In this document: positions 4,575 through 58,970 of the stretch, piece by piece | Layout: each line of letters starts with the position of its first letter | Numbering within the stretch: the stretch's first letter is position 1 | Assembly: GCA_963422395.1 (NCBI GenBank) | Contig: OY729431.1 | Location: forward strand, 1,440,001-1,504,000 | Direction: 5' to 3' | DNA from: Vicinamibacteria bacterium | GTDB taxonomy: Bacteria > Acidobacteriota > Vicinamibacteria > Marinacidobacterales > Marinacidobacteraceae | DNA length: 64,000 nucleotides | Notes under the pieces: model-generated | The model's input: only the letters and a program-made list of their open reading frames with translations | What the model was told of the DNA's origin: nothing | Database searches by the model: none | Program-made: the position numbers and the translations under genes

Positions 4575-4662
4575 CTATCTAAACAGTGCACTGTCAACCC
4601 ATCCTAAAATGGCCCATCTCCTCCCGTCGGCACTTCCGGCGCCGGCTACAATAAGGTTGCTC

Positions 4663-5250
4663 ATGCGACAGACCTCCGCTTCCGTCTCTCTGCTACCGGC
4701 CGGCGTTGCCCTGGCGCTGGCGTTGGGCGCCTCCCCGACGCTGGCAAGTGCCCAGGGCACCGACACGCCGACTGTCCGGGTCGGAGATCCAGCTCCGGAT
4801 TTCACTCTCGAGGATGCCCGCGGCGTCTCCTATCGGCTGTCCGAGATGGTGAAGAATGGACCCGTCGTACTCGAATTCTTCCGTAGTGGTGATTGGTGAC
4901 CTTTCTGCATCGCGCAACTCGGCGAGTTGCAAGAGTCACTGGATCACTTCCGAGAGGCCGGAGCTGCGGTGCTCGGGATCTCGAAGTACGGGGCGGGGGA
5001 CACTCTCGCTTGGCTTTCGAAGCACGACTGGACCTTCCCGATCCTGGTGGACGGCGGCCCGGTCATCCGCCGCTACGGCATACCCAACCCGGACCATGAG
5101 GGCACCGATCGCCAAGGCATCCCGCATCCGGCGACCATCATCGTGGACCGAGACGGGATCGTGCGTTTCGTGAATATCTGGGTGAACTACCGCAATCGGA
5201 CATCTCCCGACGATATCCTCGCCGAGCTCGCCCGGCTCGCAGGCTCCTGA
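4663..5250 (+). CDS. Secreted AhpC/TSA (thioredoxin-fold) protein, probable selenoprotein (UGA at 4897-4899 read as Sec, motif W-U-P-F-C)
   Basis: ORFs 4426..4899 and 4927..5250 are in one frame. VGDPAPDFTL...FFRSGDW*PFC...HPATIIVDRDGIVRF forms one AhpC/TSA domain with TGA at the first Cys of CxxC. Confidence 0.88.
4914..4930 (+). promoter_or_regulatory. Candidate bacterial SECIS hairpin
   Basis: GCAACTC-GGC-GAGTTGC perfect 7-bp stem starting 14 nt after the in-frame TGA. Confidence 0.7.
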
Positions 5251-5263
5251 GAGGCCCACCACC

Positions 5264-5821
5264 ATGTCTCGTTTTCTCCGTAATCAACTGTTGGCAGGAT
5301 CGTTCGCTCTGCCTGCCGCCGGTGCGCTCGCAGTCCAGGTTCCCGTCATTCCCGACTGGGGGAATGCTGCTCGATTCGAACTCGTGGCATCTCAGATGCC
5401 GGTGCGGCCCGGGGACCGGTTCGAGGTCGCGGTGGTCGCCGAGCTCGATGCTGGGTATCACCTCTACGGGCCCGAAGAGGCGCCGCCAACAGCCACCGTA
5501 GTGGAATTCCTCGGCGGAGACGCCTTCGAGAGCGACGCCCCGGACTACCCCGAGCCGATCCGCCGGGACCTGTCCGGGCTCGGAGAGTACGATCTTTACG
5601 AGGGGACGGTGGCGATCCGGATTCCGGTCACTTCCGTCGTGAGGGGCGGTCGGTCCGCGAAAGCCGAAGTGTTGGTGCGCTATCAACTGTGCACCGACGA
5701 TGCTTGTAGTGCTCCCACGAGTGCGACTCTGGGGATCGAGATCCCGGTAGCGGAAAAGGGCGCGCCGGTGGAGAATCTGCACCCGGAGGTTTTCGAGGCG
5801 CCGCAGGGAGCGAACCGATGA
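5264..5821 (+). CDS. Stand-alone DsbD N-terminal-like (Ig-fold thiol:disulfide interchange) protein
   Basis: Signal-like N-terminus, GYHLYG, YEGTV and YQLCTDDAC motifs. Confidence 0.75.
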   Translation: MSRFLRNQLLAGSFALPAAGALAVQVPVIPDWGNAARFELVASQMPVRPGDRFEVAVVAELDAGYHLYGPEEAPPTATVVEFLGGDAFESDAPDYPEPIRRDLSGLGEYDLYEGTVAIRIPVTSVVRGGRSAKAEVLVRYQLCTDDACSAPTSATLGIEIPVAEKGAPVENLHPEVFEAPQGANR

Positions 5822-6303
5822 GCAGAGTGGTTCACACCTGCCACGCCCGCGTGGTGAAGCAGGCGGGTCCGGTTCGGGAGGCGTTCCTCGAAAATTTCGA
5901 GACACCGGTGCGCTTCGGAATCCACAGCGGGATCGCAGACTTCTATGGGGTGAGCCCGGCGGAGGAGCTGCCCGCTACTCTCGATTATGTGGTCGCTGCG
6001 ACCGGTGGTTGAATGGTCGGGACCTTCGGGCGGGCACTCGAAGCACGCGGAATTCCCAGCCAGCCGGGTCGGCTCTTCGCCGAGGTAGAAGGGGACATCG
6101 TGGACGAGGATGGAGTGATGGCGCTGCGCGCGCTGCGGATTCACTACCGGGTTTCCATTCCGCCCGGAAAAAAGGAAGAGGCGGAACGGGCGCTTCATTT
6201 CCACGAACGACGCTGCCCGCTGGCCAATACCCTTCGAGGGGTGGTGGAGCTCAGCTGCACCGCCGAGTTCTCCGAGCTGGAAGTCTCTGATCCCGCGCTC
6301 TGA
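5818..6303 (+). CDS. OsmC-like protein, probable selenoprotein (UGA at 6010-6012 read as Sec)
   Basis: ORFs 5818..6012 and 6013..6303 are in one frame. TLDYVVAATGG*MVGTF puts TGA at the OsmC catalytic Cys; second Cys in RCPLANTL. Confidence 0.85.
6024..6043 (+). promoter_or_regulatory. Candidate bacterial SECIS hairpin
   Basis: CTTCGGG-CGGGCA-CTCGAAG stem with one G-U pair, starting 11 nt after the in-frame TGA. Confidence 0.65.
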
Positions 6304-8458: not shown

Positions 8459-8599
8459 CGTTATCCTGATGGTAACCTTCGTTCGTTACCTCCTCTTTCG
8501 ACGCGCTGACCGGGCGGTGCCAGATCTGCGGCCGCCCAACCCGCCGTCCCTCGGAACGAAGTCCCAGCCCACAGCGGCGGGCATGAGGCAACTACCGTA

Positions 8600-9043
8600 A
8601 TGGCGCAAGACCGCGCAGTCTCGGCGGAGGCTCGAATCCCCGGCATCGACTACGAACCGGACCGGAATGGGAAGGAAAACGGCGAACGGCAGAAGAGCGG
8701 TTCATCGACACCTGCGTCCTATTCGATGCTCGAGCCGCGCATGAAGTCGATCTACGGCCAGTTCTACAAGGAGACCTACTTTTCGGACGACCGCCACCTG
8801 GACCCGAAAGTCCAGGAACTGATCGCGCTCGCCTGTTCGCTCGTCGCCAAGTGCGAAGGGTGTCTCGACGGTCATGTGAAAAAGGCGATCAAGGCCGGCG
8901 CCACCAGGGAAGAGATCAGCGAGGCCATCGTGATCGCCATCGGTATCAACGCCGCGGCGATCGTGGATCAGACGGACCGCACGGCGGCCCGCCTCGGTCT
9001 GAACCACTTCCCGGCAGCGCTGCGCCCGCCGCGCGCCAAGTAG
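8600..9043 (+). CDS. AhpD / carboxymuconolactone decarboxylase family protein
   Basis: LDPKVQELIALA...CEGCLDGH...GATREEISEA; start could instead be 8726. Confidence 0.85.
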   Translation: MAQDRAVSAEARIPGIDYEPDRNGKENGERQKSGSSTPASYSMLEPRMKSIYGQFYKETYFSDDRHLDPKVQELIALACSLVAKCEGCLDGHVKKAIKAGATREEISEAIVIAIGINAAAIVDQTDRTAARLGLNHFPAALRPPRAK

Positions 9044-44755: not shown

Positions 44756-47700
44756 TCAGCCTTCGGGTTCGGCGTCGGGGCGGCCCGCCGCCAGGGCGTT
44801 TCCCCAGGCGAGGGCGAGGTCGCGCGATCGGTAGCTCCCGAATGTCTGCTGCTCCTGGCGTTCGAGGAGCGGGAAGGTCGAGTAGATATGCCGCACCTCG
44901 TCCCGGTCGCTCACTCCGTAGAGGTGGAAGAAGACTGCGTCGATCTTTGCGCGGAGGCGGAGGCGCCGGTCCTCGTTCCAGACGAAGGGCGGGCGGACCC
45001 GGCCGGAGGCGTCCAGATACCCGAGCTGCTCGGCGAAGGATGCCAGGTCGTTCGCGGTGTAGCTGAGCTCGAGCACCGCTTCGCGGACGATCTCGAAGGC
45101 GGTCTTCGGTCCGAAGCGGACGGCCTCGTAGGCCTCCGGCGGCACCACCGGCAGCTGCTCCAGCAGGAACAGGTTGAGGGTCTGACCCTGGACCTTCTGG
45201 CGGGCCACGAAGTCCAGCGGAATCGAGTTCAGATTGGCTGCCAGCAGCCACTCGCGCCGCTCGGTGAAAAGCGGGCAGAGAACCGGAATCTTGTTCCCGA
45301 AACCCACCGCCGGGAGGAGCGCGGCGATCACCGTACGGATGTTCGTCGTCGCAGTGATTTCCTTGAAACCGAGGACCCATCCCGTCTCCGGCTGCCAGCC
45401 GCAGTCGGCTTCCGGTATCCAGAACTGCGGCTCCGGCGACCAGTCGGGATCGCGGTGCTGTTCGAGGGCGGCGGGGACGGGGACGCCGGGGCGGTGCCGG
45501 TTCTCCGGATTCACCGCGACGCGCGCCGCCCGGTGATCGAACGCCTGCACCATCTTCCCCTCGTAGAGGGGGACGAAGGCGCCGGAAGGGCTGTCGAAGA
45601 GGTTTCCGCGGACGCGCCAGGCGCCCTCCTTCTCCTCCAATTCGGCGCGGGTGCGGAACCGCCGGGAATCGTTCGTCATGTCGAACATGCGGACATATTT
45701 CACCGGCCACGCCCGCACCGCCTCGCCAGCCGACCGGTCCACCAGCACCGGCAGCCGCCGGTAGATCGCGGTGGTGATCTCCTGGTCGCGCCGGCTGCGG
45801 AAGATCGGGGCAGTGCCGGTGTTCGGGTTCACCCGGCGGAAGTCCTCCGGGCTCAGCTCGAGCACCCGCTCCGGATCGCCGAGCTCCGAGATGCTCTGCA
45901 GGAAGAAGGCGCAGCGGGCGGGCGCGTTCGTCGGGGAGCGTCCCGCCGCCAGGACGCAGAATTTGAAGCGCGAGTCCACTGCCGGGAAAAAGGGCGGCGC
46001 GCCGAATCTCGTCCTCCGGTTCTCGAAGTCGTAGAGCGCCCGCAGCTTTCCCGCACTGGTGAGCGAGCGGAAGAAAGGGGCCGCCGTCTTGTCGGCAGCG
46101 ATCCCCGAAGGCACCAGCAGCCCCAGCACTCCCTCGGGGTGCAGCAGCGCCATCCCCCGCTCGACGAAGAGCGAGTAGAGGTTCAGGTCTCCCCTGCCGA
46201 GGAGCGGATAGTCGCCGGATTCCCGCGCCACCCGCGCGGCGGCCCGCGCCCGCCGGTCGGCCCGCGCGAAATCGGCGGCGAGCGGGTCCCCGCTCTTCCC
46301 GAGCGCCGCGATCTTCGCCTTCCGGTCGGAAGCGCGCTGGGCCCCGGCGATCTCCGGGCGGCGGAGTGCGAACCATTCGACCTGCTGCAGCTTCACCCGG
46401 TCCCAGGGCGGGTTGCCGATCACCGCGTCGAACCCGCCCCGCTCCGGGCTCTCGGCATCCGGCTCGGCGAAGACGCCCGGGAAGGCGAGCTCCCAGGAAA
46501 GGAAGCTCTCCTCGGCGGCGAGGCGGCGCGCCTCGTCGAGGAGTCCCCGGAACTTCGCCGCCAGCGCGCCCTCACCGGGGACCTCGATCTCGCCGGCGGC
46601 AGCCTCGGCAGCGAGAGCCACCGGATCGCCGAACCGCCCGCCCAGGTAGGCCTTCACCGCGGCGCGCGCCTCGCGCGACCGGTCCTCCAGCCAGTCGAGG
46701 GCGTGGAGCACCGACAAGAAGGCGGCGAAGGGGCGGGTCCGCTCCTGGATCTCGTCGAACAGGCGCTCCGATTCGCTCACCTCGGAGAGTTCGGCGTCGC
46801 TCAGCCGTTCGATGGCCGCCATCGGCGAAGCCGCCGCTGCTGCCCGGCGGATCGGTCCGGCGACGAAGAGCGGACCGCCCTCGGCGAGCGCGCGCGCCTT
46901 CCCCTCGCGCACCCAGGAACCGAAGAGGCTGTCGCCCGAGCGCAGGTGGTGGTCCAGGAAGGAGAGCGGCGCCCCCACGGTGAAGGAGTGGAGCCAGAGG
47001 GAGAGCTTGGCGAGCTCGACCGCCATCGGGTTCTTGTCCACCCCGTAGATCGAGCGTTTCAGCACCATCCGGCGGACCAGCTGCCGGTCGTCGAGCTGCG
47101 ACGGTTCCACCGTCCAGCCCCCGGCGCGCGCGTTTTCCAGGATCGTTTGGCGGATCTCGCGGATGCGGGCTGCGACCGGCGATTCGTAGCCCGGCGCCTG
47201 CTCGTGGGTGAGTGCGAGGGCCTCGATCACCCCGTCGGTGAGGTAGTCGAGCAGGCTCACCAGGAAGTGCCCCGAGCCCATCGCCGGATCCAGGACCTTC
47301 AGGGCGAGGATCCGCGAGGCGGCGTCCGCCGCAGCGAGCTCCGCCGGGTCGGCTTCGGGACCGGCGCACTCGGCAAACTCGTGCAGGGCCTTCTCCACCC
47401 GCGGGCTGACGGTCTCCTCGATCACCAGGCGGACCAGGGGCTCCGGGGTGTAGTAGCTGCCCGAATCCCTCCGCGCCGCCGAGTTCGGCCGCACCACCAC
47501 TCTTCGAGCGACTCCCCCTTCGTCTTCCTTTCCTGCTTCCCCTGCCTTCTCGTGGACGACCTCCTGTTCCAGGAGCCGTTCGTAGATCGAGCCCAATTGC
47601 GAGACCGAGAGGTCCCGGTAGTTGAGGTAGCGCCGGCCGCCCGGCGCTTCGCGGAAGCCCAGCCGGTCCACCACCCGCGCCACCGCCGCGTCCGACAGCG

Positions 47701-48856
47701 CGATCCGATCGAGGAGCGGCGCTCGGCTCCGGTCGAAGAGCCCGCCGTTGTAGGGCGGCAGCCCGAAGGCGGGGTCGCCGGAATCGAGGACGCGGCAGAG
47801 ATCGGTGATCTGGTGCCAGTAGCCGCTGGCCTGCTCCGAGAAGGCCTCCCCCCGGTCCAGCCGCTCGGCGATGTCGCCCCGGACCTGATGGCGCAGCCCG
47901 ATGTTCCGGTAGCGGGAGTCGCCCACCGGCAGCAGCCCCCGGTCTTCGGCGTAGAGGATGAAGAGCAGGCGATAGAGCAGCACCAGCGCCGCTTCCTGGA
48001 CCTCGGGGAGCGGGGCGTCCGGCGCCGCTCCGGCGATCCTGGCGGCGAGCCCCCCGAACACCTCGCCGAAGACCACCTTCGAGAGATCGCCGGCCACCTT
48101 TTCTGCGAAGTAACGCCCCTGTTCCAGGGCGAGATCGTGGACCGTCTCCCCACCGCCGCCCTCCGGCAGGAACCCGTCGCGCCGGAAGAAGAGGGTGAAG
48201 AGCGTCAGTTCGTCGAGCGGCTCGCCTCCCTCGAGCGGGAACCGATCGGGAGCGCTGCCGGTCGGATCCAACGCCCGATCCAGCTCCACCTCGAAGAAAT
48301 CGCCGGAGACCGAGCGCGCCTCGGTGTGGTAGAGGCGCCAGCGGGCGCCGTTCGTCAGGATGCCCCAGCGCACCCGCCCGCCGGTGGCGGTCCGCGCCCG
48401 TCGCAGGTAGCGGAGCATCTGGGTGGCTGGCGCCGCCCGGTCGGAACCGGAAGGCCGATCCAGATCCAGCTTCCAGCGTTTCGTTTCGACGAGGCAGACG
48501 CCGAAGGCGAATCGCCGGAATTCGTCCTCGACTCGGAGCGCCTGCGTCTTTTCGGCAGCGTTCAGGAACAGGAGTCCGTCGGGGATGTCCCGGCGGCCGT
48601 GGAGGCTCAGGTTCTGCTCCCGAAGCGTTTCGGTCCAGCCGAGTGCCCCGAGCACTCGCCAGACGAGTTCGTCGGCAGTGACCTGCTCGCTGACCCTCTG
48701 TTCCGACGCGCTCGGTGCGGGAAACTCGGCGCGGAGGCGCCGGAGCTTTGCGGCGAGGCCGGATGCGAGGTCGCCCCGCGCCGCTTTCCAGGCGGCGAGC
48801 TCGCGCACCCCTTCGGCGAGGAACTCACCGGAAAAGAGTGATCCCGCCGCCATCAT
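44756..48856 (-). CDS. Type IIG (Eco57I-like) fused restriction endonuclease / adenine methyltransferase
   Basis: PD...ETK nuclease, LTNG..WRLY, YNGGLF, GSYYTP, DPAMGSGHF (motif I), GNPPW (motif IV). Confidence 0.9.
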   Translation of the reverse strand: MMAAGSLFSGEFLAEGVRELAAWKAARGDLASGLAAKLRRLRAEFPAPSASEQRVSEQVTADELVWRVLGALGWTETLREQNLSLHGRRDIPDGLLFLNAAEKTQALRVEDEFRRFAFGVCLVETKRWKLDLDRPSGSDRAAPATQMLRYLRRARTATGGRVRWGILTNGARWRLYHTEARSVSGDFFEVELDRALDPTGSAPDRFPLEGGEPLDELTLFTLFFRRDGFLPEGGGGETVHDLALEQGRYFAEKVAGDLSKVVFGEVFGGLAARIAGAAPDAPLPEVQEAALVLLYRLLFILYAEDRGLLPVGDSRYRNIGLRHQVRGDIAERLDRGEAFSEQASGYWHQITDLCRVLDSGDPAFGLPPYNGGLFDRSRAPLLDRIALSDAAVARVVDRLGFREAPGGRRYLNYRDLSVSQLGSIYERLLEQEVVHEKAGEAGKEDEGGVARRVVVRPNSAARRDSGSYYTPEPLVRLVIEETVSPRVEKALHEFAECAGPEADPAELAAADAASRILALKVLDPAMGSGHFLVSLLDYLTDGVIEALALTHEQAPGYESPVAARIREIRQTILENARAGGWTVEPSQLDDRQLVRRMVLKRSIYGVDKNPMAVELAKLSLWLHSFTVGAPLSFLDHHLRSGDSLFGSWVREGKARALAEGGPLFVAGPIRRAAAAASPMAAIERLSDAELSEVSESERLFDEIQERTRPFAAFLSVLHALDWLEDRSREARAAVKAYLGGRFGDPVALAAEAAAGEIEVPGEGALAAKFRGLLDEARRLAAEESFLSWELAFPGVFAEPDAESPERGGFDAVIGNPPWDRVKLQQVEWFALRRPEIAGAQRASDRKAKIAALGKSGDPLAADFARADRRARAAARVARESGDYPLLGRGDLNLYSLFVERGMALLHPEGVLGLLVPSGIAADKTAAPFFRSLTSAGKLRALYDFENRRTRFGAPPFFPAVDSRFKFCVLAAGRSPTNAPARCAFFLQSISELGDPERVLELSPEDFRRVNPNTGTAPIFRSRRDQEITTAIYRRLPVLVDRSAGEAVRAWPVKYVRMFDMTNDSRRFRTRAELEEKEGAWRVRGNLFDSPSGAFVPLYEGKMVQAFDHRAARVAVNPENRHRPGVPVPAALEQHRDPDWSPEPQFWIPEADCGWQPETGWVLGFKEITATTNIRTVIAALLPAVGFGNKIPVLCPLFTERREWLLAANLNSIPLDFVARQKVQGQTLNLFLLEQLPVVPPEAYEAVRFGPKTAFEIVREAVLELSYTANDLASFAEQLGYLDASGRVRPPFVWNEDRRLRLRAKIDAVFFHLYGVSDRDEVRHIYSTFPLLERQEQQTFGSYRSRDLALAWGNALAAGRPDAEPEG

Positions 48857-48965
48857 CGGACCCGAGCGCGTCTCGCTCGGACCGGAGGCGAAGGCGGCCT
48901 GGCGAGCCCCGGCGCTGCTCTTCGGCAATCCCTGTCCCGGCGACTCCGGCTCTCAAAGGGGCGGG

Positions 48966-50183
48966 TCAGAGGCGGTTCATCGCTTCGAGAAGGGGCCAGA
49001 ACGAAAGCTGCTCCACTGCGTGGCTGCGGTAGATGCCGAGCCCGTCCATTCCGGCGGCGCGGGCGATGCGGGCCGCCTCCATCATCGCCCGCGGGTCTTG
49101 CAGGCTGCCCGGGTGGTAACAGGAGAACTCGGCCACCGTGGGCACCCGACCGCCGACCGTCTCCACGAAATGGCGGCAGCGCCGCTCGATCGTGGCGAGG
49201 TCGGTCGTGGAACGGAACCACAGGTGCATCTCGTCGCAAAGGCTCTGTTCCACCCAGGCGGCGAAGTCCTGCATCCGCGGGAGATAGCCGTCCACCCCGC
49301 GGTCGATCACGGTGATCGTGAACGCCGCATCGGCGCGGGCGGTTTTCACTCCGTCGCGGATGGCGCGCACCATCTCGGTCCAGCGGTCGGCGCGGAATTG
49401 CACCCACTCCGGATCGCGGTTCGGCAGCGCGAAGGGGTCCCGCCCGGTCGTCTCGCGGAAGGCGTCGGCGATCGAGTCCTCGTAGCCGTCGGTGCTGACT
49501 CCGTCCTCGTCCTCGTTGATGGAGACGAACTCGGCCTGGATACCGCGGGCACCGCTCCGAGAGAGCAGCTCGCCGAAGGCCCGCGCCTCTTCCGCTCGGC
49601 CGCCAGGCGATCCGGGACTCAAGAACACCCGCTGGTAGGGGCGGAGCGCGTCGGTTCGCTCCCGGTTCCGGTGGCGGTGTTCGGGGTGGTCTCGCAGGAA
49701 GTCGCTCAGGCTCTCGACCCGCCGGGGATGGCTCCAGATCGGGCGGTGGGCGTTCAGGACCGTCCGGCCTGCTTCGCTGCCGAAGCGCGGCACCATGAAG
49801 TTCGAAGACCAGGCCGGGTACATCCGCATCCCGCCGTGCGAGGCGACCGCCTTGTAAGGATGGACTTCGACCCCCACTGCGGCGCCCGCCTCGACGAGCT
49901 CGGCGCTCGCGCCCGGAGCGAAGACGCGGGAGACTCCGTGATCGGCGCACTTGCGGACATAGACTTCGACCTCGGTCTCCCCGGTGGTGCTGCGGAAGGC
50001 TTCCCCCAGGCCGAGGTCCTGCCCCCAGAGCGCCACCCCCGCCGGCGGCGGCCCGGCGGCCGGTCTGCCGGCAGGTTCGGCGCTGGCAGGCCGAACGCCG
50101 ACAGGTGCGGCCAGTACCGGAAGCGCGACCGCTCCCGGGAAAGCCAGGCCCTTCAGGAATTCGCGGCGGCGGAACGCGCTCAT
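48966..50183 (-). CDS. Tat-exported TIM-barrel protein, glycoside-hydrolase-like (DUF187/GHL10-like)
   Basis: RRREFLKG leader; EVHP, F...TG.DP, W..FR, QD...W pattern. Confidence 0.6.
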   Translation of the reverse strand: MSAFRRREFLKGLAFPGAVALPVLAAPVGVRPASAEPAGRPAAGPPPAGVALWGQDLGLGEAFRSTTGETEVEVYVRKCADHGVSRVFAPGASAELVEAGAAVGVEVHPYKAVASHGGMRMYPAWSSNFMVPRFGSEAGRTVLNAHRPIWSHPRRVESLSDFLRDHPEHRHRNRERTDALRPYQRVFLSPGSPGGRAEEARAFGELLSRSGARGIQAEFVSINEDEDGVSTDGYEDSIADAFRETTGRDPFALPNRDPEWVQFRADRWTEMVRAIRDGVKTARADAAFTITVIDRGVDGYLPRMQDFAAWVEQSLCDEMHLWFRSTTDLATIERRCRHFVETVGGRVPTVAEFSCYHPGSLQDPRAMMEAARIARAAGMDGLGIYRSHAVEQLSFWPLLEAMNRL

Positions 50184-51463
50184 CCGGTCACTCCGTTTCG
50201 GACGGCATCCTCGATCCCGGCAGCGAACAGATCCACCTCTTCGAGGGTGGTGAAGACGCTCGGCGAAACCCGGATGCAGTCGAACTCGCCCCGAACGAAG
50301 CGGGGTCGGACATGGACCCGATACTCGTGCTCGAGAAAGTCGGTCAACGCTCCGGAGTCCACCCCTTCGATCCGCATCGCCCCGATCCCGCAGGCTTGCC
50401 GGATGTCCGGCGGGTTCAGCACCCGAACCCCGGGCAGCTCCTGCACCCGCTCGGCCCAGCGCTGCCGCAGGTACAGCAGGCGCTCGGCCTTCCGCTCGGC
50501 GCCGAGGCCCTCGTGGAAGGTGACCGCCTCGGTGATCGGCCCTCGGAGCGCCACCGGGTTCGTCCCGATCTGCTCGAACTTGCGGATGTCGTCGGCCTGA
50601 CTCGCAGGCGCGCTCATCAGCGGCCAGACCCTCGGAATCTTCTCCTTGCGGACATAGAGGAACCCGGTGCCCACCGGGGCGAAGAGCCATTTGTGGAGGC
50701 TGGTGCCGTAGTAGTCGCAGTCGAGCTCGTCGCGGGTGAAGGGGAAATGGGCGAAGCCGTGGGCGCCGTCCACCAGCGTCTCGACGCCGCGGCGGCGGGC
50801 CATCCGGCAGATCTCTCCCACCGGGAAGATCTGCCCGGTGGTGTAGGTGGTGTGGCAGATCAGCAGCAGCTTCGTCTTCTCGGTGATCGCGCGTTCGAGG
50901 ATCCCGGTGAGTTCCGAGAGGTCCTCCGGCGGCGTGGGGTACGGGACCGTCCGCAGCACGATGCCGTCGCGCCGCTCCCGCTGGCGGAAGGTGGTGAGCA
51001 TCCGGGGGTAGTCCTGGGTGGTGGTGAGCACCTCGTCCCCGGCTTCGAGCGGCAGGCCGAACTGCACGATCTCCATCGCCTCGCTCGCGTTTCGGGTGAA
51101 GGCCAGCTCGTCGGCCCCGCAGCCGAAGGCTGCGGCGAGCCGCCGCCGCGCCACTTCGAGGCGCGGGCCGAGCAGCTCGTCCACATAGAGCGAGGGCCCC
51201 ATGTTGGTGATGTCCCAGTACTGCTGCATCGCCCGTTGGACCGAGACCGGCGCCGGGCTCACGCTGCCCGAGTTCAGGTTGATGTGGTTACGGTCGATGG
51301 TGAAGGCCTCGCGCACTCGGAACCAGAAGTCCTCGTCCCGGGCTGCCTCGGCCGCAGTGCGCCCGCCGAGCTGCGCGGCCGCCTTTCCGATCCGCGCTTC
51401 GGCGTCCTCTTGGAGCGCGGTGAGGAGGCCGCCGGCCGCCCCCAGAAAAGTCCTTCGGAGCAT
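50180..51463 (-). CDS. Tat-signal class V PLP-dependent aminotransferase (isopenicillin N epimerase-like)
   Basis: LRRTFLG leader, VDGAH, SLHKW PLP lysine, P.GTG. Confidence 0.88.
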   Translation of the reverse strand: MLRRTFLGAAGGLLTALQEDAEARIGKAAAQLGGRTAAEAARDEDFWFRVREAFTIDRNHINLNSGSVSPAPVSVQRAMQQYWDITNMGPSLYVDELLGPRLEVARRRLAAAFGCGADELAFTRNASEAMEIVQFGLPLEAGDEVLTTTQDYPRMLTTFRQRERRDGIVLRTVPYPTPPEDLSELTGILERAITEKTKLLLICHTTYTTGQIFPVGEICRMARRRGVETLVDGAHGFAHFPFTRDELDCDYYGTSLHKWLFAPVGTGFLYVRKEKIPRVWPLMSAPASQADDIRKFEQIGTNPVALRGPITEAVTFHEGLGAERKAERLLYLRQRWAERVQELPGVRVLNPPDIRQACGIGAMRIEGVDSGALTDFLEHEYRVHVRPRFVRGEFDCIRVSPSVFTTLEEVDLFAAGIEDAVRNGVTG

Positions 51464-51614
51464 GGAACCCCTCCCCTCGATCGGCTCCCGAACATACCAT
51501 CGGGCGCCGAACCGTTCTTGGGTACCCTTTCGAGCGCCTCCGTCTGCCCCGGGTCTCCCGCGCTGCCTGGCCGGCTTCGGGCATTTCGGGGATCGGAGCG
51601 GGGCGAGTGGAGAT

Positions 51615-52043
51615 ATGACCCGAACGACGGACTTCGCCGACGCCCATCTTCGGCACGGGGAGGATGCCGAACTGTTGTTCGGTTCGAAACGCTTCGGGGG
51701 TGCCGACCACCTCTACGGGCTGAGCGCCGAATGCGGTCTGAAGGCGGTCATGGAACGGTTGGGCATGGAGGTGGACGCGGCCGGCACTCCGAAAGATCCC
51801 CACTACAAGAAGCACATCCATGAGCTCTGGCCTATCTTCGAGGACTTCATCCAGAATCGGAAGCAGGCTCGGTTTCGACTCCCGCCGGGCAAGCCGTTCG
51901 CCGACTGGTCGCATCATGACCGGTATGCGCCCCGAAGCCGTTTCGAGGAGGGGAGCGTGGATCGGCACCGACTCGGCGCGAAGATGATTCTGCCCCTGGT
52001 GGAACGGGCACGGCTGGAGCTGGAACCACCGGAGCAGGAATGA
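51615..52043 (+). CDS. HEPN-like domain protein
   Basis: DAELL...YGLSAECGLKA, KHIHELW and DW...RY resemble HEPN signatures. Confidence 0.65.
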   Translation: MTRTTDFADAHLRHGEDAELLFGSKRFGGADHLYGLSAECGLKAVMERLGMEVDAAGTPKDPHYKKHIHELWPIFEDFIQNRKQARFRLPPGKPFADWSHHDRYAPRSRFEEGSVDRHRLGAKMILPLVERARLELEPPEQE

Positions 52044-53356
52044 TGAAGCACCAGTTCGTTCCCTTCGACGCCATGCGGAAGCGAGCCGCGGAGGCTGTCG
52101 ACGCCCTGCCGCCTGCACCGGCGGGACTCTCGAAGATCTGGCTGGTTCGGAACCTCCACGGTCGGCTGAGGATCTGTGTCGGAAACGAGTGCGAGGCCGA
52201 TCGCGAGATCCGGGAATTCCTGCGTGATGCCGCGGTGCGCCTCCACGAGGTGCTCGGAGTTCGGAGCCATGAGCCGGAGCAGGGAGTGCTGTTCGTGGGA
52301 GACCAACTGCTCGACTCCCTCGAGCAGGGCGGCCAGCCGCTCCGGCCTGGATCGAGGTTCTATCTGGCCGACCGGCTGGTGGCCGGAACCGACTGGTGGA
52401 CGGTTGCACCATCGTCGGAAGTCCCCGGCCGTCCGCAACGGTTCACGCTCTACTCGGTGAAAGGCGGGGTCGGGCGCAGCACCACGGCCGCGATCCTCGC
52501 CTGGGACCTGGCTCGGCGGGGCCGGCGCGTTCTGGTCTTGGACCTGGATCTGGAATCCCCGGGTCTTTCGCCGGTGATGCTGGAACGCGAGCGACGCCCT
52601 GAATTCGGCGTCACCGACTGGTTCGTCGAAGACCTGGTCGGTCAGGGAGATCGGGTCCTCGAGCGCATGGCCGCCGCGCCCGCCTGGGCTCGCGACTTCG
52701 AGGGCGCGGTGCACATCGTGCCGGCCCACGGCAGGAATCCGGGCGAATATCTGGCGAAACTGGGGCGCGTCTATCTGGGCTTCGGCCAGGAGGAGTGGAC
52801 CGCCCGCCTGAAGCGGCTCCTCCAGACCCTCGAAAAGCGGCACGACCCCGAGGTGGTGCTCATCGAGAGCCGAAGCGGGCTCCACGACATCGCGGCGGCG
52901 ACGGTGACCGACCTCGGCGCCGAGGTGCTGCTCTTCGGCACCGATTCGGAGAGTGCCTGGGACGGCTACCGCATCCTCTTCCGCCACTGGCAGGAGCTCG
53001 GACTCGCCCGAGACATCCGGGAGCGGCTCTGGACGGTGTCGGCGCTCACCCCCGAATTCAACACCGGCTCCTATCTGGCCCGCTTCCGGCTGCGCGCCTG
53101 GGAACTGTTCCAGGAGTACCTCTACGACGAATTGGCAGCCGGTGAAGGTGCGGAAAGCAACGCTTTCTCCTTCGGCGAGACCGACGACGACGCCCCGCAC
53201 CACCCCCTGCCCATCCACTGGAATCGGGGGCTCGCGGCCGGGGCATCGCTGCTCGACATCGCGGGGTTGCCCACCGGATCGGCCTACGGGGCGTTTCTCG
53301 AGCGCTTCCACGCCCGCTTTCCACCCCGCCCCAGCGCCGCCGGGAAACTGCGGTGA
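52040..53356 (+). CDS. ParA/MinD-like ATPase with KGGVGRS variant P-loop
   Basis: YSVKGGVGRSTT, DLDLESPG, ESRSG; ATGA overlap with the upstream gene. Confidence 0.85.
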   Translation: MMKHQFVPFDAMRKRAAEAVDALPPAPAGLSKIWLVRNLHGRLRICVGNECEADREIREFLRDAAVRLHEVLGVRSHEPEQGVLFVGDQLLDSLEQGGQPLRPGSRFYLADRLVAGTDWWTVAPSSEVPGRPQRFTLYSVKGGVGRSTTAAILAWDLARRGRRVLVLDLDLESPGLSPVMLERERRPEFGVTDWFVEDLVGQGDRVLERMAAAPAWARDFEGAVHIVPAHGRNPGEYLAKLGRVYLGFGQEEWTARLKRLLQTLEKRHDPEVVLIESRSGLHDIAAATVTDLGAEVLLFGTDSESAWDGYRILFRHWQELGLARDIRERLWTVSALTPEFNTGSYLARFRLRAWELFQEYLYDELAAGEGAESNAFSFGETDDDAPHHPLPIHWNRGLAAGASLLDIAGLPTGSAYGAFLERFHARFPPRPSAAGKLR

Positions 53357-54819
53357 GCACGATAAAGGCTGCCGAGGCGAGGGAGGCGCTGCGGCAGCTG
53401 CCGGAGGGGACGAGCCACGGCGATACGCCAAAGCTGGAGGAGGTGTACCTGCCGCGCTCCCACCTCCGGGCGATGGACCCCGACGCACTGGTCGTCACCG
53501 GCATGCGCGGCGCCGGCAAGACCTTCTGGTGGGGTGCGCTCCAGGACAAAGCGGTGCGGGCGATGCTCGGCAAAGTGCCCGGATTCCGCACGGTGGACGC
53601 CTCGACCGAAGTGCGAACTGGCTTCGGCGTTCGACCGGATTCCGGGAAATACCCGGGGAAGGACACGATTCGGCAACTGCTGGATGAAGGACACGAAGCG
53701 CGGATCATCTGGCGCACGGTGGCCGCCTGGCAGTTCACCCGGCAGTTCCCCCGCGAGGATCACCCGCTCCGGCAGAAAACCTCGTGGGCGGAGCGGGTGG
53801 AGTGGGCGGCGCACCATCCGGAATCGACGGAAGCGCTGTTCGAAGAGAGCGACCGGGCCTCGGATCAGCGGAAAACGCACACCCTGCTGCTCTTCGACGG
53901 TTTGGACCGATCCGCCGACGATTGGAAGACGATGTATGTGGTCATCCGCGGTCTCTTGCAGACCGCGTTGGATCTGCGCTCCTATCGGCGGCTGCGCGTG
54001 AAGGTCTTCCTCCGGTCCGACCAGCTCGACGAGGGACGCATCGCCGATTTCCCCGATGCCTCGAAGGTCCTCGCTTCCAGCGTCGATCTGAGCTGGCCCC
54101 GGCGCGAGCTCTATGGACTCCTCTGGCATTCGCTGGCGAACGGAGACGCCGGTAAGTTATTTCGGGCCTTCCTCGGAGACGACAGGCGGGCTCGGGCTGC
54201 GGCGGTGCTTCCGACTCTCTTCAATGTGCCGCGGCGGTTCGTCGCGGACGAAGACCGCCAGCGGGAGAAGTTCCATGCTCTCACCGGCCCCTGGATGGGA
54301 AGCGGCCCGCGCCGGGGCTTCCCCTACACCTGGATCCCGAACCATCTGGCAGACACCGCCGGACGGGTGAGCCCGCGCTCTTTCCTCGCCGCCCTCCGCG
54401 CGGCTGCCGAAGACACCGCCGAGCGCCATCCGGATTGGGATCACGCTCTCCACTACGAGAGCATCAAGCGCGGCGTGCAGGAAGCTTCCAGGATCCGGGT
54501 GGACGAGCTGCGGGAGGACTATCCCTGGGTCCACCGCCTCCTCAATGCCCTGAAAGGAATGGTCGTTCCCCTCTCCTTCGCCGAGATCGAGGAGCGTTGG
54601 CGGGAGCGGGGAGTGATCGAGGACCTCGATGGTTGGACGGGAGGGCAAGAAGTGAAAGTGAAGCTGCCGCCTGGCCGCCCCGGGCCCGAGGGGGCCCGCG
54701 AGGGCCTCGAGACCCTCGGGGTCTTCCAGCGCCTCTACGACGGTCGGGTGAACATCCCCGATGTGTATCGGGTGGGCTATGGGCTCGGACGCCGGGGCGG
54801 GGTGAAGCCGGTCCGCTGA
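53353..54819 (+). CDS. STAND-like P-loop NTPase
   Basis: GMRGAGKT, LLLFDGLD, VFLRSD, SPRSFL, wHTH-like C-terminus; GTGA overlap. Confidence 0.75.
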   Translation: MSTIKAAEAREALRQLPEGTSHGDTPKLEEVYLPRSHLRAMDPDALVVTGMRGAGKTFWWGALQDKAVRAMLGKVPGFRTVDASTEVRTGFGVRPDSGKYPGKDTIRQLLDEGHEARIIWRTVAAWQFTRQFPREDHPLRQKTSWAERVEWAAHHPESTEALFEESDRASDQRKTHTLLLFDGLDRSADDWKTMYVVIRGLLQTALDLRSYRRLRVKVFLRSDQLDEGRIADFPDASKVLASSVDLSWPRRELYGLLWHSLANGDAGKLFRAFLGDDRRARAAAVLPTLFNVPRRFVADEDRQREKFHALTGPWMGSGPRRGFPYTWIPNHLADTAGRVSPRSFLAALRAAAEDTAERHPDWDHALHYESIKRGVQEASRIRVDELREDYPWVHRLLNALKGMVVPLSFAEIEERWRERGVIEDLDGWTGGQEVKVKLPPGRPGPEGAREGLETLGVFQRLYDGRVNIPDVYRVGYGLGRRGGVKPVR

Positions 54820-54978
54820 GGACACTCCGCTACCCGGGAACTGCACCGACCGCATCGCCCCGCCGGTCTCCCGCCGGCCGCGGCGGAGACGCCGCGCCTT
54901 CTCCACCCGCCTTCGTGCTCCCTTTGCGTCTTCGTGCTTCCACACCTTCGTACCATTGCCGTTCGGAGGGTTCTCCCC

Positions 54979-56322
54979 ATGATGCAAAAAGCGCAAGACA
55001 TCCTGCCGTTCGCGGTCACTGCCGCGCTGTCGCTCTTCGCCGCCCCGGAAAACGGGGCGGCGCAGCCGACGGTCCCCCACCTGCCGGGAGAGGACGGCAT
55101 CCTGCCGCAGCCCTGGGCGGCGCTCGTGAACACCCAGGTCGTCGATGTGGAAGACGGCTCGATCATCGAGAACGCGGTGGTGGTGGTCCGGGACGGGCTG
55201 ATCGAGTCCGTGGGAACCGACCCGCCGCCCGAAGGGGCGCACCTCCTCGATCTCGGCGGCCGATACCTCATCCCCGGCCTCTTCGACGCCCACTGGCACG
55301 GGCGCACCCTCGACGGCCTCTACCGCGCCCTCGAATCCGGGGTCACCACGATGAAGAGCGCCGCGGTGGGCAGCTTTCTCGATGTACAGATGAACGACAT
55401 GGTGGAACGGGGCTACCTCGCCGGGCCCGAGATCTTCGCCGCCGGCGTCTATGTGCTGCCCCAGCTCGGGCAGTCGGCACTCGCCGACCCGCGTCTCTAC
55501 CGGTACCTCCATCGGGAGGTCCGGGGGGCGGCGGCAGTGCGCGAAGTGGTGCGGGTGGATGTGGACCGGGGCGCGCGTTGGATCAAGACCCGTTCCGGGG
55601 GCACCACTTCGGGGCCGAACGGACCGGACCCCAAGATGATGGTGTACAGCGTGGACGAGCTCACCGCCATCGTGGAGGAAGCCGACGCGCTGGGAGTCAG
55701 GGTCTCCTGCCACGCCCACGGGAAGGAAGTCGTTCGCAACGCCATCGTCGCGGGTTGCGCCACGATCGAGCACGGCTCCTATGTGGACGAAGAAGGCCTG
55801 CGGCTGATGGCGGAACGCGGGACGGCGTGGGTGCCGACCTATACCTCGGTCGTCGGCTTTCTGCTGCCGCACGACGACTACGACTCCTCGGCGAGTTTCC
55901 AGCGGGGCAGCCACCTGCTCCACTACCTGGAAAAGGGCTTTCGGCGGGCGCTGGAACTCGGGGTCACCGTCATCACCGCCACCGATACCCAGTACGGCCC
56001 GCGCAGCAACAACCGCATCTACCGGGAGATGACTCACTTCGTCGAGCTGGGGATGACCCCGCTCCAGGCGCTGCAGTCGGCGACGACCCGCTCCGCCGAG
56101 GTGTACGGGATCCGCCACCGCACCGGCGCCATCGAACCGGGTCTCGAAGCCGATCTGGTGTCGGTGGACGGCAACCCGATCGAGGACATCTACGCCACCC
56201 ACGAACCCATGTTCGTGATGAGCAACGGCCGCATCGTCTTCCACCGAACGGTGGATCCCGACCACTACATCCCCCGTCGGATGGGGGTTTCGGGGTTCGG
56301 AACCGGCGGTCCCCGCCCCTGA
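54979..56322 (+). CDS. Secreted metal-dependent amidohydrolase
   Basis: PGLFDAHWH, WIK, HAH, EHG, TD, G.EADLV. Confidence 0.9.
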   Translation: MMQKAQDILPFAVTAALSLFAAPENGAAQPTVPHLPGEDGILPQPWAALVNTQVVDVEDGSIIENAVVVVRDGLIESVGTDPPPEGAHLLDLGGRYLIPGLFDAHWHGRTLDGLYRALESGVTTMKSAAVGSFLDVQMNDMVERGYLAGPEIFAAGVYVLPQLGQSALADPRLYRYLHREVRGAAAVREVVRVDVDRGARWIKTRSGGTTSGPNGPDPKMMVYSVDELTAIVEEADALGVRVSCHAHGKEVVRNAIVAGCATIEHGSYVDEEGLRLMAERGTAWVPTYTSVVGFLLPHDDYDSSASFQRGSHLLHYLEKGFRRALELGVTVITATDTQYGPRSNNRIYREMTHFVELGMTPLQALQSATTRSAEVYGIRHRTGAIEPGLEADLVSVDGNPIEDIYATHEPMFVMSNGRIVFHRTVDPDHYIPRRMGVSGFGTGGPRP

Positions 56323-56384
56323 CGGATTTCCCTTACGGATTCCCCTGACGGATCTCCCTCGGTGGATCTACGCTGACGGATCGC
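56318..56384. repeat. Degenerate ~13-bp tandem repeat (CCTGACGGATYTC-like, about 5 copies)
   Basis: Units start at 56318, 56331, 56344, 56357 and about 56372. Confidence 0.75.
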
Positions 56385-56432
56385 CGTGGAGCGAATCGCC
56401 GGGCCGGGCCGGCCGCTTCCAGGCGGCAGCGG

Positions 56433-58970
56433 TCAGAAGCGGAAGCGGATTCCCACCGTCGGGACCCGGGGAAAGCCGAAACTCGGCGTCTGCTCGACGG
56501 TGGGCAGACCCCCAGCGGGATCCGAAACCACTTCGGTCTCGATCTCGACCCCGTTTTCACGGTTCAGCGCGTTGATGACCTCCGCATAGGCCTCGAAACG
56601 CCCGCCGCGGCCGCCGTGGCGGTAGGTCAGGCGCAGATCGAGGCGGGCGTAGGAGGGGAGCCGTGCCCGGCCGCGGTTGTCGAGGCCGCCGAAGTCCGCT
56701 GCCCAGGCGAGGTTCCCCGCGCCGTCCCGCTCGGGAACCAGCCGGCCCCGGGCGTCTTCGATCGCTGCGGCCCGAATCCCGACCGCCGGCGTGTAGGGGA
56801 ATCCACTGGCGAACCTCGCGGTGCCGGCGAGGCTCAGCCGGGAACCGAGCCGCACCCGGCCGACGAGGTTCAGGGCATGGGGCCGGTCGTATTCGAAGGG
56901 GTAGCGGCGCCCCCAGGTTTGCCGCTCTGCCTTCCCGTAGGCGTAGGAGACCCAGCCCGCCAGCCGCGCTTCCGGATCGAGTCGTTCCAGGTAGATGTCG
57001 AGCCCGCGGGCGCTTCCGTCGCCGCCGTTCACCGGCGCCACCGTGACTTGCGGAGCCGACGGCACGCTTCCGGCCAGCTCCTCCGGAAAGTCGTAGCGGG
57101 CGACACGGGCGAGCCTTACCGCTTCGGTCTCGAGTTGGCCCACGAGCAACCCGTCGAACTGCTTCCAGTAGGCCTCGACCTGCAGCCGCGCCTCTCCGGG
57201 CAGGGACTTTTCGATTCCCAGCACCGCATGGTAGGCCCGTTCGTGCTCGAGCTCGCGGATATCGCTGAGGTCGAGAAGCGTGTCCGAAGCGGAGAGCTTC
57301 TCCCACCCGGGGCTTTGGGTGTACACCCCGCCGGCGGCCCGAGCCTGGAGCCCGCCGCCGAAGTCCCAGCTAGCCGCGAAGCGGGGTGACAGGGTGGCGC
57401 GGCGATTCAGCGTGCTCCATTCCAGCCGCAACCCGGGCTCGATGGTGAACCGTTCGGAGAGGCGAAAGCCGTCCTGGACCCAAGCACCGCCGCGAAAGCC
57501 GGTAAGCGAGGAGTCGAGGGCATCGGGCAGCGCGGTGCCTCCCCGGACACTCGTCGGATCGGCCAGCGATTCGTTGCGGATGCCGCGGATCGTCTGCTGG
57601 AGGCCCGAGTCGAGGCGGTGCAGCTCGAAACCGGTCTCGACGAAGTGGGTCTCGCCGAAACGGATGCCGAGTTCCTGTCGGAGCGAGAGGTCGCGGACTT
57701 CACGGGTCTGGTCGAACACGATCGGCACCAACAGGTCGCGCTCGTCCGGTTCCTCGACGTTCACCGCGCGGTTGCCAGTGCGGACCAGGGCGTCGAAGTC
57801 CACCACCTCCACATTGCGGTACCAGGCGACGATGGTGGTCGAGGTCAGCCGATCCGAGATCAGCGCGTCGAAGCGGGCGGCGCCGAGATCGTTCTCGGCG
57901 TCGGCCAGCACCTCCACCCGCTCGTCTTCATCCTCCTCGTCGAAGGAGAATTCGGTGTCCTCCCGGCTGCGGATGCCGGTGAGGGTGAGGCGGTGGCCAG
58001 GTCCCAACTCCCAGTCGGCCCGCAGTTGGAAATCCGCGAAGGAGGGAAAGTCCTGATCGAGGATTCGTCCGGCGACCAGGTCGTAGTAGGTGCGCCGGCC
58101 GGTGGCGAGAAACGAGCCGGCGCCCGGCAGCGGCCCTTCCACGACCAGGTTCGCGTCGGTGACGCTGAGCGACGAAGTCCCTCCGAAGTCCCGCTCGCCG
58201 GACCGGTTCCTCACCATCAGCAGCGAGGAGAGCCGGTCTCCGTACTTGGCGCCGAACCCGCCGGCGGCCAGCGAAAAATTCGAGACCGTCTCCGGGTTGA
58301 ACGCGCTCACCAGACCGAACAGCCGGTAGGGGTTGTGGATCTCGACCCCGTCCATCAGCGTCAGGTTCTGGTCCGGGGTCCCGCCGCGCACCGAGAGGAA
58401 GCTGCCGAAGTCCGAAGTGGGAGCGACCCCCGGCAGGGTGGTGAGTGCTCGGAAGATGTTGTCCACCGAGCCCGCGGTTTCGAGCACTTCGGTCGGGGCC
58501 ACCACGGTGGCGGCCGCCCGGTCCGCCACGGGATTCCGCGCCGTCACTTCGACCTCTTCCTCGAAGGTTCGGGGCGCGAGCTCCACAGTGATCTCGGCGG
58601 CAGCAGCAGGCAATAGGATGGAAGCCTCGAAATATCCCTCGGCCGCGAAGGAAAGCGAACGGGCTCCCGCCGGGACTTCGATGCGGAAAGACCCGTCCGC
58701 TGCGCTTTCGACGGCGGCTTCCCCGGCGCGGATCTCCACTCCGGGAAGCGGCTCGCCGGACACTGCGGAAAGTACCCGGCCGGTGATCTCCTGGATCGTC
58801 TCGCGGTCCGTCTCCTGAGCCATCTCGCGGTCCGCCGGGGCGGCGGGTCCGGTCTGGGATCCCTGCTGGAATTCCATCGGAAACCCCATTTGCTCGGCGG
58901 CGGAGACGACGCCGGAAAAAAGCAGCGTCCCGAGGGCGGCGGCAGCAGCGGGAAGGAATCTTCGGCTCAT
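56433..58970 (-). CDS. TonB-dependent receptor
   Basis: N-terminal carboxypeptidase-regulatory-like domain, plug LPGV...VRGG..QN, C-terminal GIRFRF. Confidence 0.92.
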   Translation of the reverse strand: MSRRFLPAAAAALGTLLFSGVVSAAEQMGFPMEFQQGSQTGPAAPADREMAQETDRETIQEITGRVLSAVSGEPLPGVEIRAGEAAVESAADGSFRIEVPAGARSLSFAAEGYFEASILLPAAAAEITVELAPRTFEEEVEVTARNPVADRAAATVVAPTEVLETAGSVDNIFRALTTLPGVAPTSDFGSFLSVRGGTPDQNLTLMDGVEIHNPYRLFGLVSAFNPETVSNFSLAAGGFGAKYGDRLSSLLMVRNRSGERDFGGTSSLSVTDANLVVEGPLPGAGSFLATGRRTYYDLVAGRILDQDFPSFADFQLRADWELGPGHRLTLTGIRSREDTEFSFDEEDEDERVEVLADAENDLGAARFDALISDRLTSTTIVAWYRNVEVVDFDALVRTGNRAVNVEEPDERDLLVPIVFDQTREVRDLSLRQELGIRFGETHFVETGFELHRLDSGLQQTIRGIRNESLADPTSVRGGTALPDALDSSLTGFRGGAWVQDGFRLSERFTIEPGLRLEWSTLNRRATLSPRFAASWDFGGGLQARAAGGVYTQSPGWEKLSASDTLLDLSDIRELEHERAYHAVLGIEKSLPGEARLQVEAYWKQFDGLLVGQLETEAVRLARVARYDFPEELAGSVPSAPQVTVAPVNGGDGSARGLDIYLERLDPEARLAGWVSYAYGKAERQTWGRRYPFEYDRPHALNLVGRVRLGSRLSLAGTARFASGFPYTPAVGIRAAAIEDARGRLVPERDGAGNLAWAADFGGLDNRGRARLPSYARLDLRLTYRHGGRGGRFEAYAEVINALNRENGVEIETEVVSDPAGGLPTVEQTPSFGFPRVPTVGIRFRF

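Follow-up and report, generated by a model that had tools for sequence, protein, structure and literature searches.

A three-gene HEPN, variant ParA and ORC/STAND-like ATPase cassette in a Vicinamibacteria genome as a member of the PDC-M28/HINPO candidate defence family

What might a small HEPN-like protein encoded together with two dissimilar ATPases do for the bacterium that carries them, and is such a combination already on record? The question is raised by positions 51615–54819 of a 64,000-nucleotide stretch of the genome of a Vicinamibacteria bacterium (GenBank assembly GCA_963422395.1, contig OY729431.1, positions 1,440,001 to 1,504,000 of the forward strand), which is called the window here. 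The original prediction, made from the letters of this stretch, had described at that place three genes joined by ATGA and GTGA overlaps, encoding a HEPN-like protein, a ParA/MinD-like ATPase and a STAND-like NTPase, as a candidate defence system that could not be matched to any named and experimentally tested one. The layout is as described; the novelty implied by that account is gone, because the cassette matches the catalogued system PDC-M28 and fits the arrangement described as HINPO, whereas its other half stands, in that no experimentally tested match was found.

The cassette and its catalogued counterparts

The three genes, A, B and C, are co-directional on the + strand and, in the window sequence as read for open reading frames (ORFs), form an intact cassette. 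Gene A (51615–52043, 142 amino acids) begins with ATG and has GGAG ahead of its start; gene B (52040–53356, 438 amino acids) overlaps A by the four nucleotides ATGA, the junction being GGAATGATGAAG; and gene C (53353–54819, 488 amino acids) begins with GTG within a GTGA overlap with B, the junction being CGGTGAGC. Both stop/start overlaps point to translational coupling. The first residue of the relatives falls, in the homologue alignment, opposite the second methionine of B, and for this reason the true start of B may be the second ATG, at 52043. A 280-amino-acid ORF at 51201–52043 on the + strand is no more than an upstream extension of A into the antisense of an aminotransferase gene.

The PADLOC run that the original prediction had called for assigned all three genes to a single system of PADLOC-DB v2, the proteins of A, B and C matching the profiles PDC-M28A (1.9e-41), PDC-M28B (6.6e-132) and PDC-M28C (8.4e-170), each with near full-length coverage of the profile; hidden Markov model E-values from 1e-41 to 1e-170 place these sequence assignments far beyond chance. 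With three contiguous genes that match the A, B and C profiles in the same order, the cassette satisfies the definition of PDC-M28, and no structural difference separates the two. The 145 PDC systems are untested candidates, picked out because they lie embedded in loci of BREX, DISARM or type I restriction-modification (RM) systems ('guilt-by-embedding'; 10.1101/2024.01.29.577857), and the main text of that paper does not mention PDC-M28 by name. The window copy differs from such cases in its setting, since it is not embedded in a BREX, DISARM or type I RM locus and lies just 2.7 kb from a DrmMI/type IIG-like gene.

The second counterpart is the in-silico system HINPO of Li, Burroughs and Aravind, that is, HEPN / inactive nucleotidyltransferase (NTase)-ParA / ORC-CDC6 (bioRxiv 10.64898/2026.10.19.760177, Oct 2026). 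In the parts of the preprint consulted, its ParA protein belongs to a clade ConB2, in which Arg replaces the Walker A Lys and sensor-1 is followed by a PG motif; the N-terminal domain of this protein is fast-evolving, is placed in the Pol-beta NTase superfamily by structure searches and is judged inactive; the upstream gene encodes a novel HEPN protein, PA-HEPN1; and the downstream gene encodes an ATPase of the ORC-CDC6/STAND clade that is sometimes fused to the ParA protein (10.64898/2026.10.19.760177). The account is a computational inference, and the same parts make no mention of PADLOC (10.64898/2026.10.19.760177). The window cassette resembles it in the small upstream HEPN gene, in a ParA protein with both the Walker A Lys-to-Arg change (KGGVGRS) and a PG motif (HGRNPGEY), in the fast-evolving N-terminal domain of that protein and in the downstream ORC-CDC6/STAND-like ATPase, and relatives of the cassette show the occasional fusion of B to C. 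The features of HINPO thus fit, except that the Pol-beta NTase fold of the B N-terminal domain was not reproduced in this analysis and that the ORC/STAND assignment of C comes from weak matches. Gene A is presumably the PA-HEPN1 of the preprint. We infer that PDC-M28 and HINPO are one family, equated by description and not by accession, and the two catalogues seem to cover one and the same family, neither citing the other; a literature search returned no papers naming PDC-M28, KGGVGR or Sll1717. The cassette is therefore not new in kind, being known from the PADLOC catalogue and from an in-silico description, and it is here a new intact member. What is newly added is the cross-reference between PDC-M28 and HINPO, the counts of triads and fusions, the plasmid copies in cultured bacteria, the degenerate Rx4-6H motif of A and the NTase fold of B that was not reproduced.

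The three proteins

The HEPN-like nature of gene A, for which 330 homologues were found, is borne out by structure prediction. The AlphaFold2 (AF2) model, built from a 45-sequence alignment, has a four-helix core with a predicted local distance difference test score (pLDDT) of 89.6, and its ten best Foldseek matches in the PDB are all HEPN proteins (1wol, 4nqf, 1o3u, 2q00, 3o10, 2hsb and 1ufb among them), with probabilities up to 1.0, E-values of 0.036–0.65 and TM scores of 0.38–0.63. A HEPN fold for the predicted protein is thus supported, and the Pfam matches of its relatives point the same way (HEPN_AbiV, weakly, in 27/45, best 1.7e-5, and HEPN in 4/45). The alignment has 17 invariant columns, R103 among them, and H11, R13, H14, E39, K43, H67, H101, D102, R103, Y104, H118 and R119 are kept in at least 41 of the 45 sequences. 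PDB sequence searches with the A and C profiles gave chance-level matches at best (E 0.26 or 1.6), and for C nothing beyond that level. A characterised likeness is AbiV, the HEPN RNase abortive-infection system of Lactococcus: the relatives of A match HEPN_AbiV in the 27 cases just given, and an AbiV chain (9bj7) is rank 15 in the fold search. AbiV is partnered by an RNA antitoxin, abiV2, in a pair resembling type III toxin–antitoxin (TA) systems, according to the portion of the report consulted (10.1101/2024.05.05.592566); the window cassette differs in having two ATPases as partners in place of an RNA antitoxin.

Gene B matches the NCBIfam family NF047398, 'KGGVGR-motif variant AAA ATPase', at 3.1e-53 (180.9 bits against a cut-off of 90), and in Pfam it matches CbiA/ParA over the P-loop region only. 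The deviant Walker A motif KGGVGRS named in the original prediction is confirmed at 52460–52480 on the + strand (residues 141–147), with the signature Lys141 kept and the P-loop Lys replaced by Arg146; the pattern KGG[VLM]GR is present in 53/53 full-length B homologues in which the motif was found, two further loci having no motif in the frame read. The PG motif reads HGRNPGEY; in the B alignment its G234 reaches 90% conservation or more, and P227 and G230, a few residues before it, do not vary. A further point of the original prediction, the absence of ParB, also agrees with the data: none occurs among the window neighbours scanned. The cassette departs from ParABS systems in this and in having no conserved fourth gene in the 80 loci described below; parS sites were not searched.

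Because the ParA-like domain recognised by NF047398 begins at residue 132, B carries, as predicted, about 130 extra N-terminal residues (52043–52435, + strand). This domain is fast-evolving, with a mean column identity of 39% against 57% for the whole of B, and its AF2 model (pLDDT 85.1) runs in the order helix, two strands, long helix, strand, helix, strand. Among its Foldseek PDB matches listed none is described as an NTase, and the best are pieces of acyl-CoA ligase/PaaK (E 0.034–0.35, query TM score 0.28–0.37); none of 36 members of the domain has an NTase Pfam match, an Atlas search with residues 1–130 gave no usable match, and the domain alignment contains an invariant Gly but no conserved DxD-type motif or acidic pair. 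The N-terminal profile found 216 proteins among 1.84 billion representatives; the 150 matches listed have the domain at the N-terminus or close to it, in proteins of about 430–450 amino acids, in fusions of 727–935 amino acids or in fragments. The original prediction had noted that A has no adjacent minimal nucleotidyltransferase (MNT) antitoxin. It is correct that no separate MNT gene was found next to A, which is flanked by the aminotransferase gene and by B, but the statement may mislead, since the preprint assigns the N-terminal domain of B itself to the Pol-beta NTase superfamily, a placement not reproduced here. A complex prediction for A with full-length B scored 0.00 in two runs and speaks neither for nor against binding.

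Gene C, with 1,411 homologues among the candidates scored, has a Walker A motif, GMRGAGKT, at 53500–53523 on the + strand (residues 50–57) and a Walker B-like LLFDGLDR at about residues 178–186; 31 homologues show no variation from M51 to T57 or at D182/D185 and conserve G50 to at least 90%. The match to NCBIfam NF047389 (P-loop ATPase, Sll1717 family) covers residues 155–422 only, at 3.9e-19, and because its 69.1 bits fall below the cut-off of 75, C is a relative and not a curated member of that family. In Pfam the window protein has a sub-threshold AAA_16 match (3e-4), and the sub-threshold matches of 31 relatives are to AAA_16 (26), NPHP3_N (23), KAP_NTPase (7) and NACHT (3); among its Atlas neighbours are clusters named in part ORC-CDC6-like (13% of members), nSTAND1 (19%) or Sll1717. 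Pfam finds no repeat or effector domain in C, and together with the Atlas neighbours this agrees with the description of a STAND-like NTPase without fused sensor or effector. The resemblance to STAND/Avs proteins lies in the P-loop NTPase with an AAA_16/NACHT/ORC-like neighbourhood and in the switch role proposed for it; by Pfam, however, C has neither the fused N-terminal effector nor the C-terminal repeat sensor and so lacks the tripartite architecture of Avs/STAND proteins, and in the cassette the effector is a separate gene, with a second, ParA-type ATPase interposed.

Conservation and genomic context

Scanning a single genome for each species gave 184 relatives of C, from which 80 loci (numbered L) were kept; L035 and L075 are cut off upstream, and the triad counts cover the other 78. 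Gene B lies directly upstream of C in 77/78 loci (with at least 90% coverage in 71/78) and A directly upstream of B in 72/78 (with at least 85% coverage in 68/78), and the full triad is present in 66/78, which upholds the conservation of the triad that was to be checked. In 5 of 77 loci (L038, L041, L045, L060 and L063) B and C form a single continuous ORF, and fusion of this kind is classical evidence of a joint function of the two ATPases. Across the 80 loci there is no conserved fourth gene, the largest cluster of neighbours comprising 7 loci, and the triad is therefore a self-contained unit. The loci come from Acidobacteriota (Bryobacterales, Vicinamibacterales and Thermoanaerobaculia), Gemmatimonadota, Latescibacterota, Binatia, Spirochaetia, Chloroflexota, Alpha- and Gammaproteobacteria, Desulfobacterales, Candidatus Magnetobacterium, Planctomycetota, Rhodothermales and Thermaceae.

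Twelve of the 78 loci fall short of the full triad. Six of them, treated below, have no A upstream of B; L053 keeps a remnant of A; deletions inside the genes affect L004, L029 and L079; and two divergent loci, L069 and L071, reach a B coverage of 84%. Apart from these twelve, frame breaks occur in the loci from long-read metagenome-assembled genomes L006, L017, L033, L056 and L074. In L004, L029, L079 and L076 a truncated A is joined to a truncated B, or B is shortened, with C at full length, and these have the appearance of copies in decay, with C the last to be lost. In L042, likewise not one of the twelve, an insert of about 1.4 kb (4602–6012) that may be an insertion sequence interrupts B between residues ~114 and ~109 in the alignment to the query. 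Very large TPR-containing ORFs (574–1733 amino acids) stand directly upstream of the triad in four Vicinamibacterales loci (L040, L050, L053 and L057), and a NIPSNAP-domain gene recurs downstream; these neighbours probably reflect lineage synteny and are not part of the system.

The genes next to the triads were delimited with a heuristic ORF picker, and 156 immediate neighbours were compared with PADLOC at E<=1e-10. Strong matches were obtained for 19 of them, distributed over 14/80 loci, and 4 more were weak and partial. The strong neighbours comprise DISARM DrmA/B/D/MI (L030, L041, L051, L054 and L060), BREX PglX (L064), HmaC (L062), HEC-01A (L034, L037 and L076), PDC-M50A (L006, L041 and L045), DarG (L027), AbiLi (L022), PD-Lambda-2 (L030), PtuA (L045), IetA (L051) and PDC-M68A (L034). 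The PDC-M50A-like genes (136–143 amino acids, 3e-42 to 1e-40), which belong to another PADLOC candidate and are without a Pfam match, lie directly downstream of C (L006, 8567–8974; L041, 8449–8865; L045, 8445–8873), and two of these loci, L041 and L045, also have the B-C fusion.

Homologues of C occur on 23 plasmids; none was found in phage records, a result that is neutral for a role in defence. The plasmid pTM2 of Tistrella mobilis carries the whole triad in the same order and with the same overlaps, at identities of 42% (A), 44% (B) and 42% (C), and a conjugative IncF plasmid of Enterobacter bugandensis carries it at 31%, 33% and 35%, respectively, adjoining a tyrosine recombinase gene. The RefSeq labels of the plasmid triad genes are hypothetical protein, AAA family ATPase and hypothetical protein. 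The context of the triad is thus mobile and defence-associated in a minority of loci.

In the window itself, the distance of about 3 kb to an RM gene given in the original prediction is accurate: a type IIG RM/DrmMI-like gene (44756–48928, − strand; Pfam Eco57I 3e-20, PADLOC DrmMI 9e-87) lies 2.7 kb upstream of the cassette. It encodes a methyltransferase of 1390 amino acids, the DrmMI match is partial (residues 481–841), and no other DISARM genes occur among the window neighbours scanned. Seven loci have type IIG/DrmMI-like relatives of this gene no more than 7 kb from the triad; that of L021 is the best (50% identity over 830 amino acids, about 4.6 kb downstream of the triad), and the other 6 are weaker. 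Between the RM gene and the cassette lie a GHL10 glycosyl-hydrolase-like gene (48966–50180, − strand) and a class V aminotransferase gene (50180–51463, − strand), the latter being the upstream neighbour and divergent from gene A; downstream follow an amidohydrolase gene (54934–56322, + strand; 6.7e-34) and a TonB-dependent receptor gene (56433–58970, − strand). The setting between secreted-enzyme genes that had been described therefore needs correcting on one side: the amidohydrolase has an N-terminus that resembles a signal peptide when judged by eye, but the upstream neighbour is the aminotransferase. The weak PADLOC matches of this aminotransferase to the cysteine desulfurases SspA (2.4e-22) and DndA (3.3e-20) of DNA phosphorothioation systems are probably a generic family similarity. 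In the convergent gap between the amidohydrolase and TonB-receptor genes, an 18-nucleotide unit (CCCCTGACGGATTTCCCT-like) is present in three copies 13 nucleotides apart (56316–56359).

The divergent intergenic region between the aminotransferase gene and gene A (51464–51614, 151 bp as read from the sequence) is the presumed promoter region of the cassette. A sigma-70 consensus scan of 51300–55100 gave 0 promoter-like sites against 0.2 expected, and the promoter is therefore not demonstrated; terminator-like sites in the same interval were no more frequent than expected. The window is GC-rich throughout (0.637–0.727) and abounds in long shadow ORFs, such as that at 44888–48841 on the + strand opposite the RM gene, which makes ORF length alone misleading here. 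Since no tRNA was found in 38000–64000, no convincing cassette-flanking repeat in 50000–56500 and no GC anomaly at the cassette (0.676–0.682 across 50001–56000 against the range for the whole window), recent insertion is not shown. None of the flank genes (aminotransferase, GHL10, amidohydrolase, TonB receptor) is shared by any of the 80 relative loci, where RM-like matches alone appeared, and the lineage of the window copy is therefore not placeable.

Function and rival explanations

The most likely mechanism, with a probability of about 0.55, is that of a conflict or anti-phage module in which an ATPase pair, acting as sensor and switch, would govern a HEPN effector; the two-NTPase switch of the original prediction is thus retained as the best current hypothesis, and sensing, switching, RNA cleavage and protection are all steps that we infer. 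C, whose Walker A and B motifs are intact, would as an ORC/CDC6-STAND-like ATPase sense a cue from the invader, possibly DNA, and would work in one complex with B. Changes of the P-loop Lys to Arg generally spare ATP binding and cripple hydrolysis; for this reason B, as a ParA-type ATPase that dimerises or multimerises, is proposed to bind ATP, probably, and to hydrolyse it slowly, so serving as a latch or scaffold. The pair of NTPases would control A, and the small HEPN protein would arrest the cell or the invader by way of RNA.

Several observations weigh against this interpretation. The HEPN fold has weak Foldseek E-values, none better than 0.036, the window's own A protein has no Pfam match, in which it also differs from AbiV, and the ORC/STAND assignment of C rests on sub-threshold matches. 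The description of A as an RNase effector is weakened by the motif: from the invariant R103 the pattern Rx4-6H is present in 24/45 relatives, and it is absent from the window copy, which reads RYAPRSRF from R103 onward with no His at +5 to +7, and for these reasons RNase activity of A is not assured. AbiV, from which the window protein differs in this respect as well, supplies a parallel: as far as the consulted part of that report goes, its R91 and H97 are needed for rRNA cleavage, and in the AbiV family neither these residues nor their spacing, nor the Rx4-6H motif, are conserved (10.1101/2024.05.05.592566). By the same token, a variant HEPN active site in A is possible on sequence grounds.

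The proposed effector is, moreover, not always in place. A is missing upstream of B in 6/78 loci (L008, L024, L036, L060, L062 and L076), and B-C can therefore persist without A. L062 has neither A nor B, whereas in L036 an A-like gene (8525–8899, 43% identity over residues 1–132) stands downstream of C and not upstream of B, which shows that the order of the genes is not wholly rigid. The loci without A gave no sign of a swapped effector: L024 has a large, unrelated and unscanned ORF directly upstream of B, L060 an ORF that resembles a membrane protein when judged by eye, and L008 a Pro-rich ORF without a Pfam match. The association with defence islands, which was likewise to be checked, is seen in the 14 loci given above and lacking in the other 66/80, where no immediate neighbour has a strong PADLOC match. 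Defence genes make up a few percent per genome, and the apparent enrichment among neighbours was judged against this figure, without a background control. Finally, the literature search found no experimental work on PDC-M28 or HINPO, the latter appearing in one computational preprint.

The preprint proposes a different division of labour, in which C senses foreign DNA and guides B into multimeric ParA assemblies that are themselves the primary effector blocking the invader, the N-terminal domain of B senses nucleotides and A is a backup effector for suicide or dormancy; the parts consulted state it as a hypothesis (10.64898/2026.10.19.760177). This proposal, which we regard as rather unlikely, draws support from the occurrence of B-C without A in 6/78 loci and from the B-C fusions in 5/77, and the degenerate Rx4-6H motif would fit an A that is dispensable or non-catalytic. 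Nevertheless, A is kept upstream of B in 72/78 loci and retains its 17 invariant columns, which argues for a core and not an optional role, the nucleotide-binding NTase fold that the sensing step calls for was not reproduced, and the polymerisation of B is a prediction only.

The N-terminal domain of B admits yet another reading, namely that the cassette is a captured HEPN-MNT pair placed under the control of two ATPases. Here the domain would be the docking site of the HEPN protein, a degenerate MNT-type antitoxin and not a nucleotide sensor; A would have given up the canonical Rx4-6H site for R103-Y104 with H67, H101 and H118, or would be a non-catalytic RNA binder; and the Arg-bearing ParA protein together with the ORC-like ATPase would provide an ATP-latched release. 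Taken as a whole, this combination is quite unlikely. The cassette resembles type II HEPN-MNT TA systems in that a small HEPN gene lies beside the gene for a protein to which a Pol-beta-type NTase domain has been ascribed, but it differs in that it lacks a small MNT gene of its own with an active GS...DxD motif, the presumed NTase forming part of the ParA protein and being regarded as catalytically inactive, and in that the HEPN motif of the window A is degenerate. In HEPN-MNT systems the toxin is neutralised by AMPylation, a step that would not apply with an inactive NTase.

A related explanation would make the cassette a TA-like addiction or stabilisation module of mobile elements, with the HEPN toxin A kept inactive through direct binding by the N-terminal domain of B as a degenerate MNT-type antitoxin and the ATPases tuning its release, so that the benefit would be maintenance of the element and not defence against phages. 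HEPN-MNT pairs are a common type of TA system, the triad is present on plasmids, including the conjugative IncF plasmid on which it stands beside a recombinase gene, and its genomic context differs from locus to locus. The parts of the preprint consulted also place the N-terminal domain of B in a superfamily that is said to count the minimal nucleotidyltransferase among its members (10.64898/2026.10.19.760177). The explanation is nonetheless improbable: the NTase fold was not reproduced, the N-terminal domain of B is kept in loci without A (L008, L024 and L060), and most copies are chromosomal. A non-immune cellular module, regulating programmed cell death or development in multicellular bacteria or the ParA-based localisation or assembly of a cell component, is very improbable, for although ParA/MinD relatives normally position cell components, according to the part of the preprint consulted (10.64898/2026.10.19.760177), and metabolic neighbours are found at most loci, no ParB or cargo gene is conserved beside the cassette, DISARM, BREX or Hma genes adjoin it in 7 loci, and its spread over many phyla and plasmids is patchy.

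For the family, these results carry some cautions: the HEPN motif is non-canonical, the NTase fold is not obvious, and PDC-M28 and HINPO are apparently the same and are described without cross-citation. The family is widespread, with about 330 homologues of A and 1,411 of C in many phyla and on plasmids of cultured bacteria, and the window adds to it a compact, intact and translationally coupled copy. If the conflict module built on an ATPase pair and a HEPN effector proves protective, it would be the first tested immune system based on a ParA-type ATPase with Arg for the P-loop Lys, paired with an ORC/CDC6-like ATPase.

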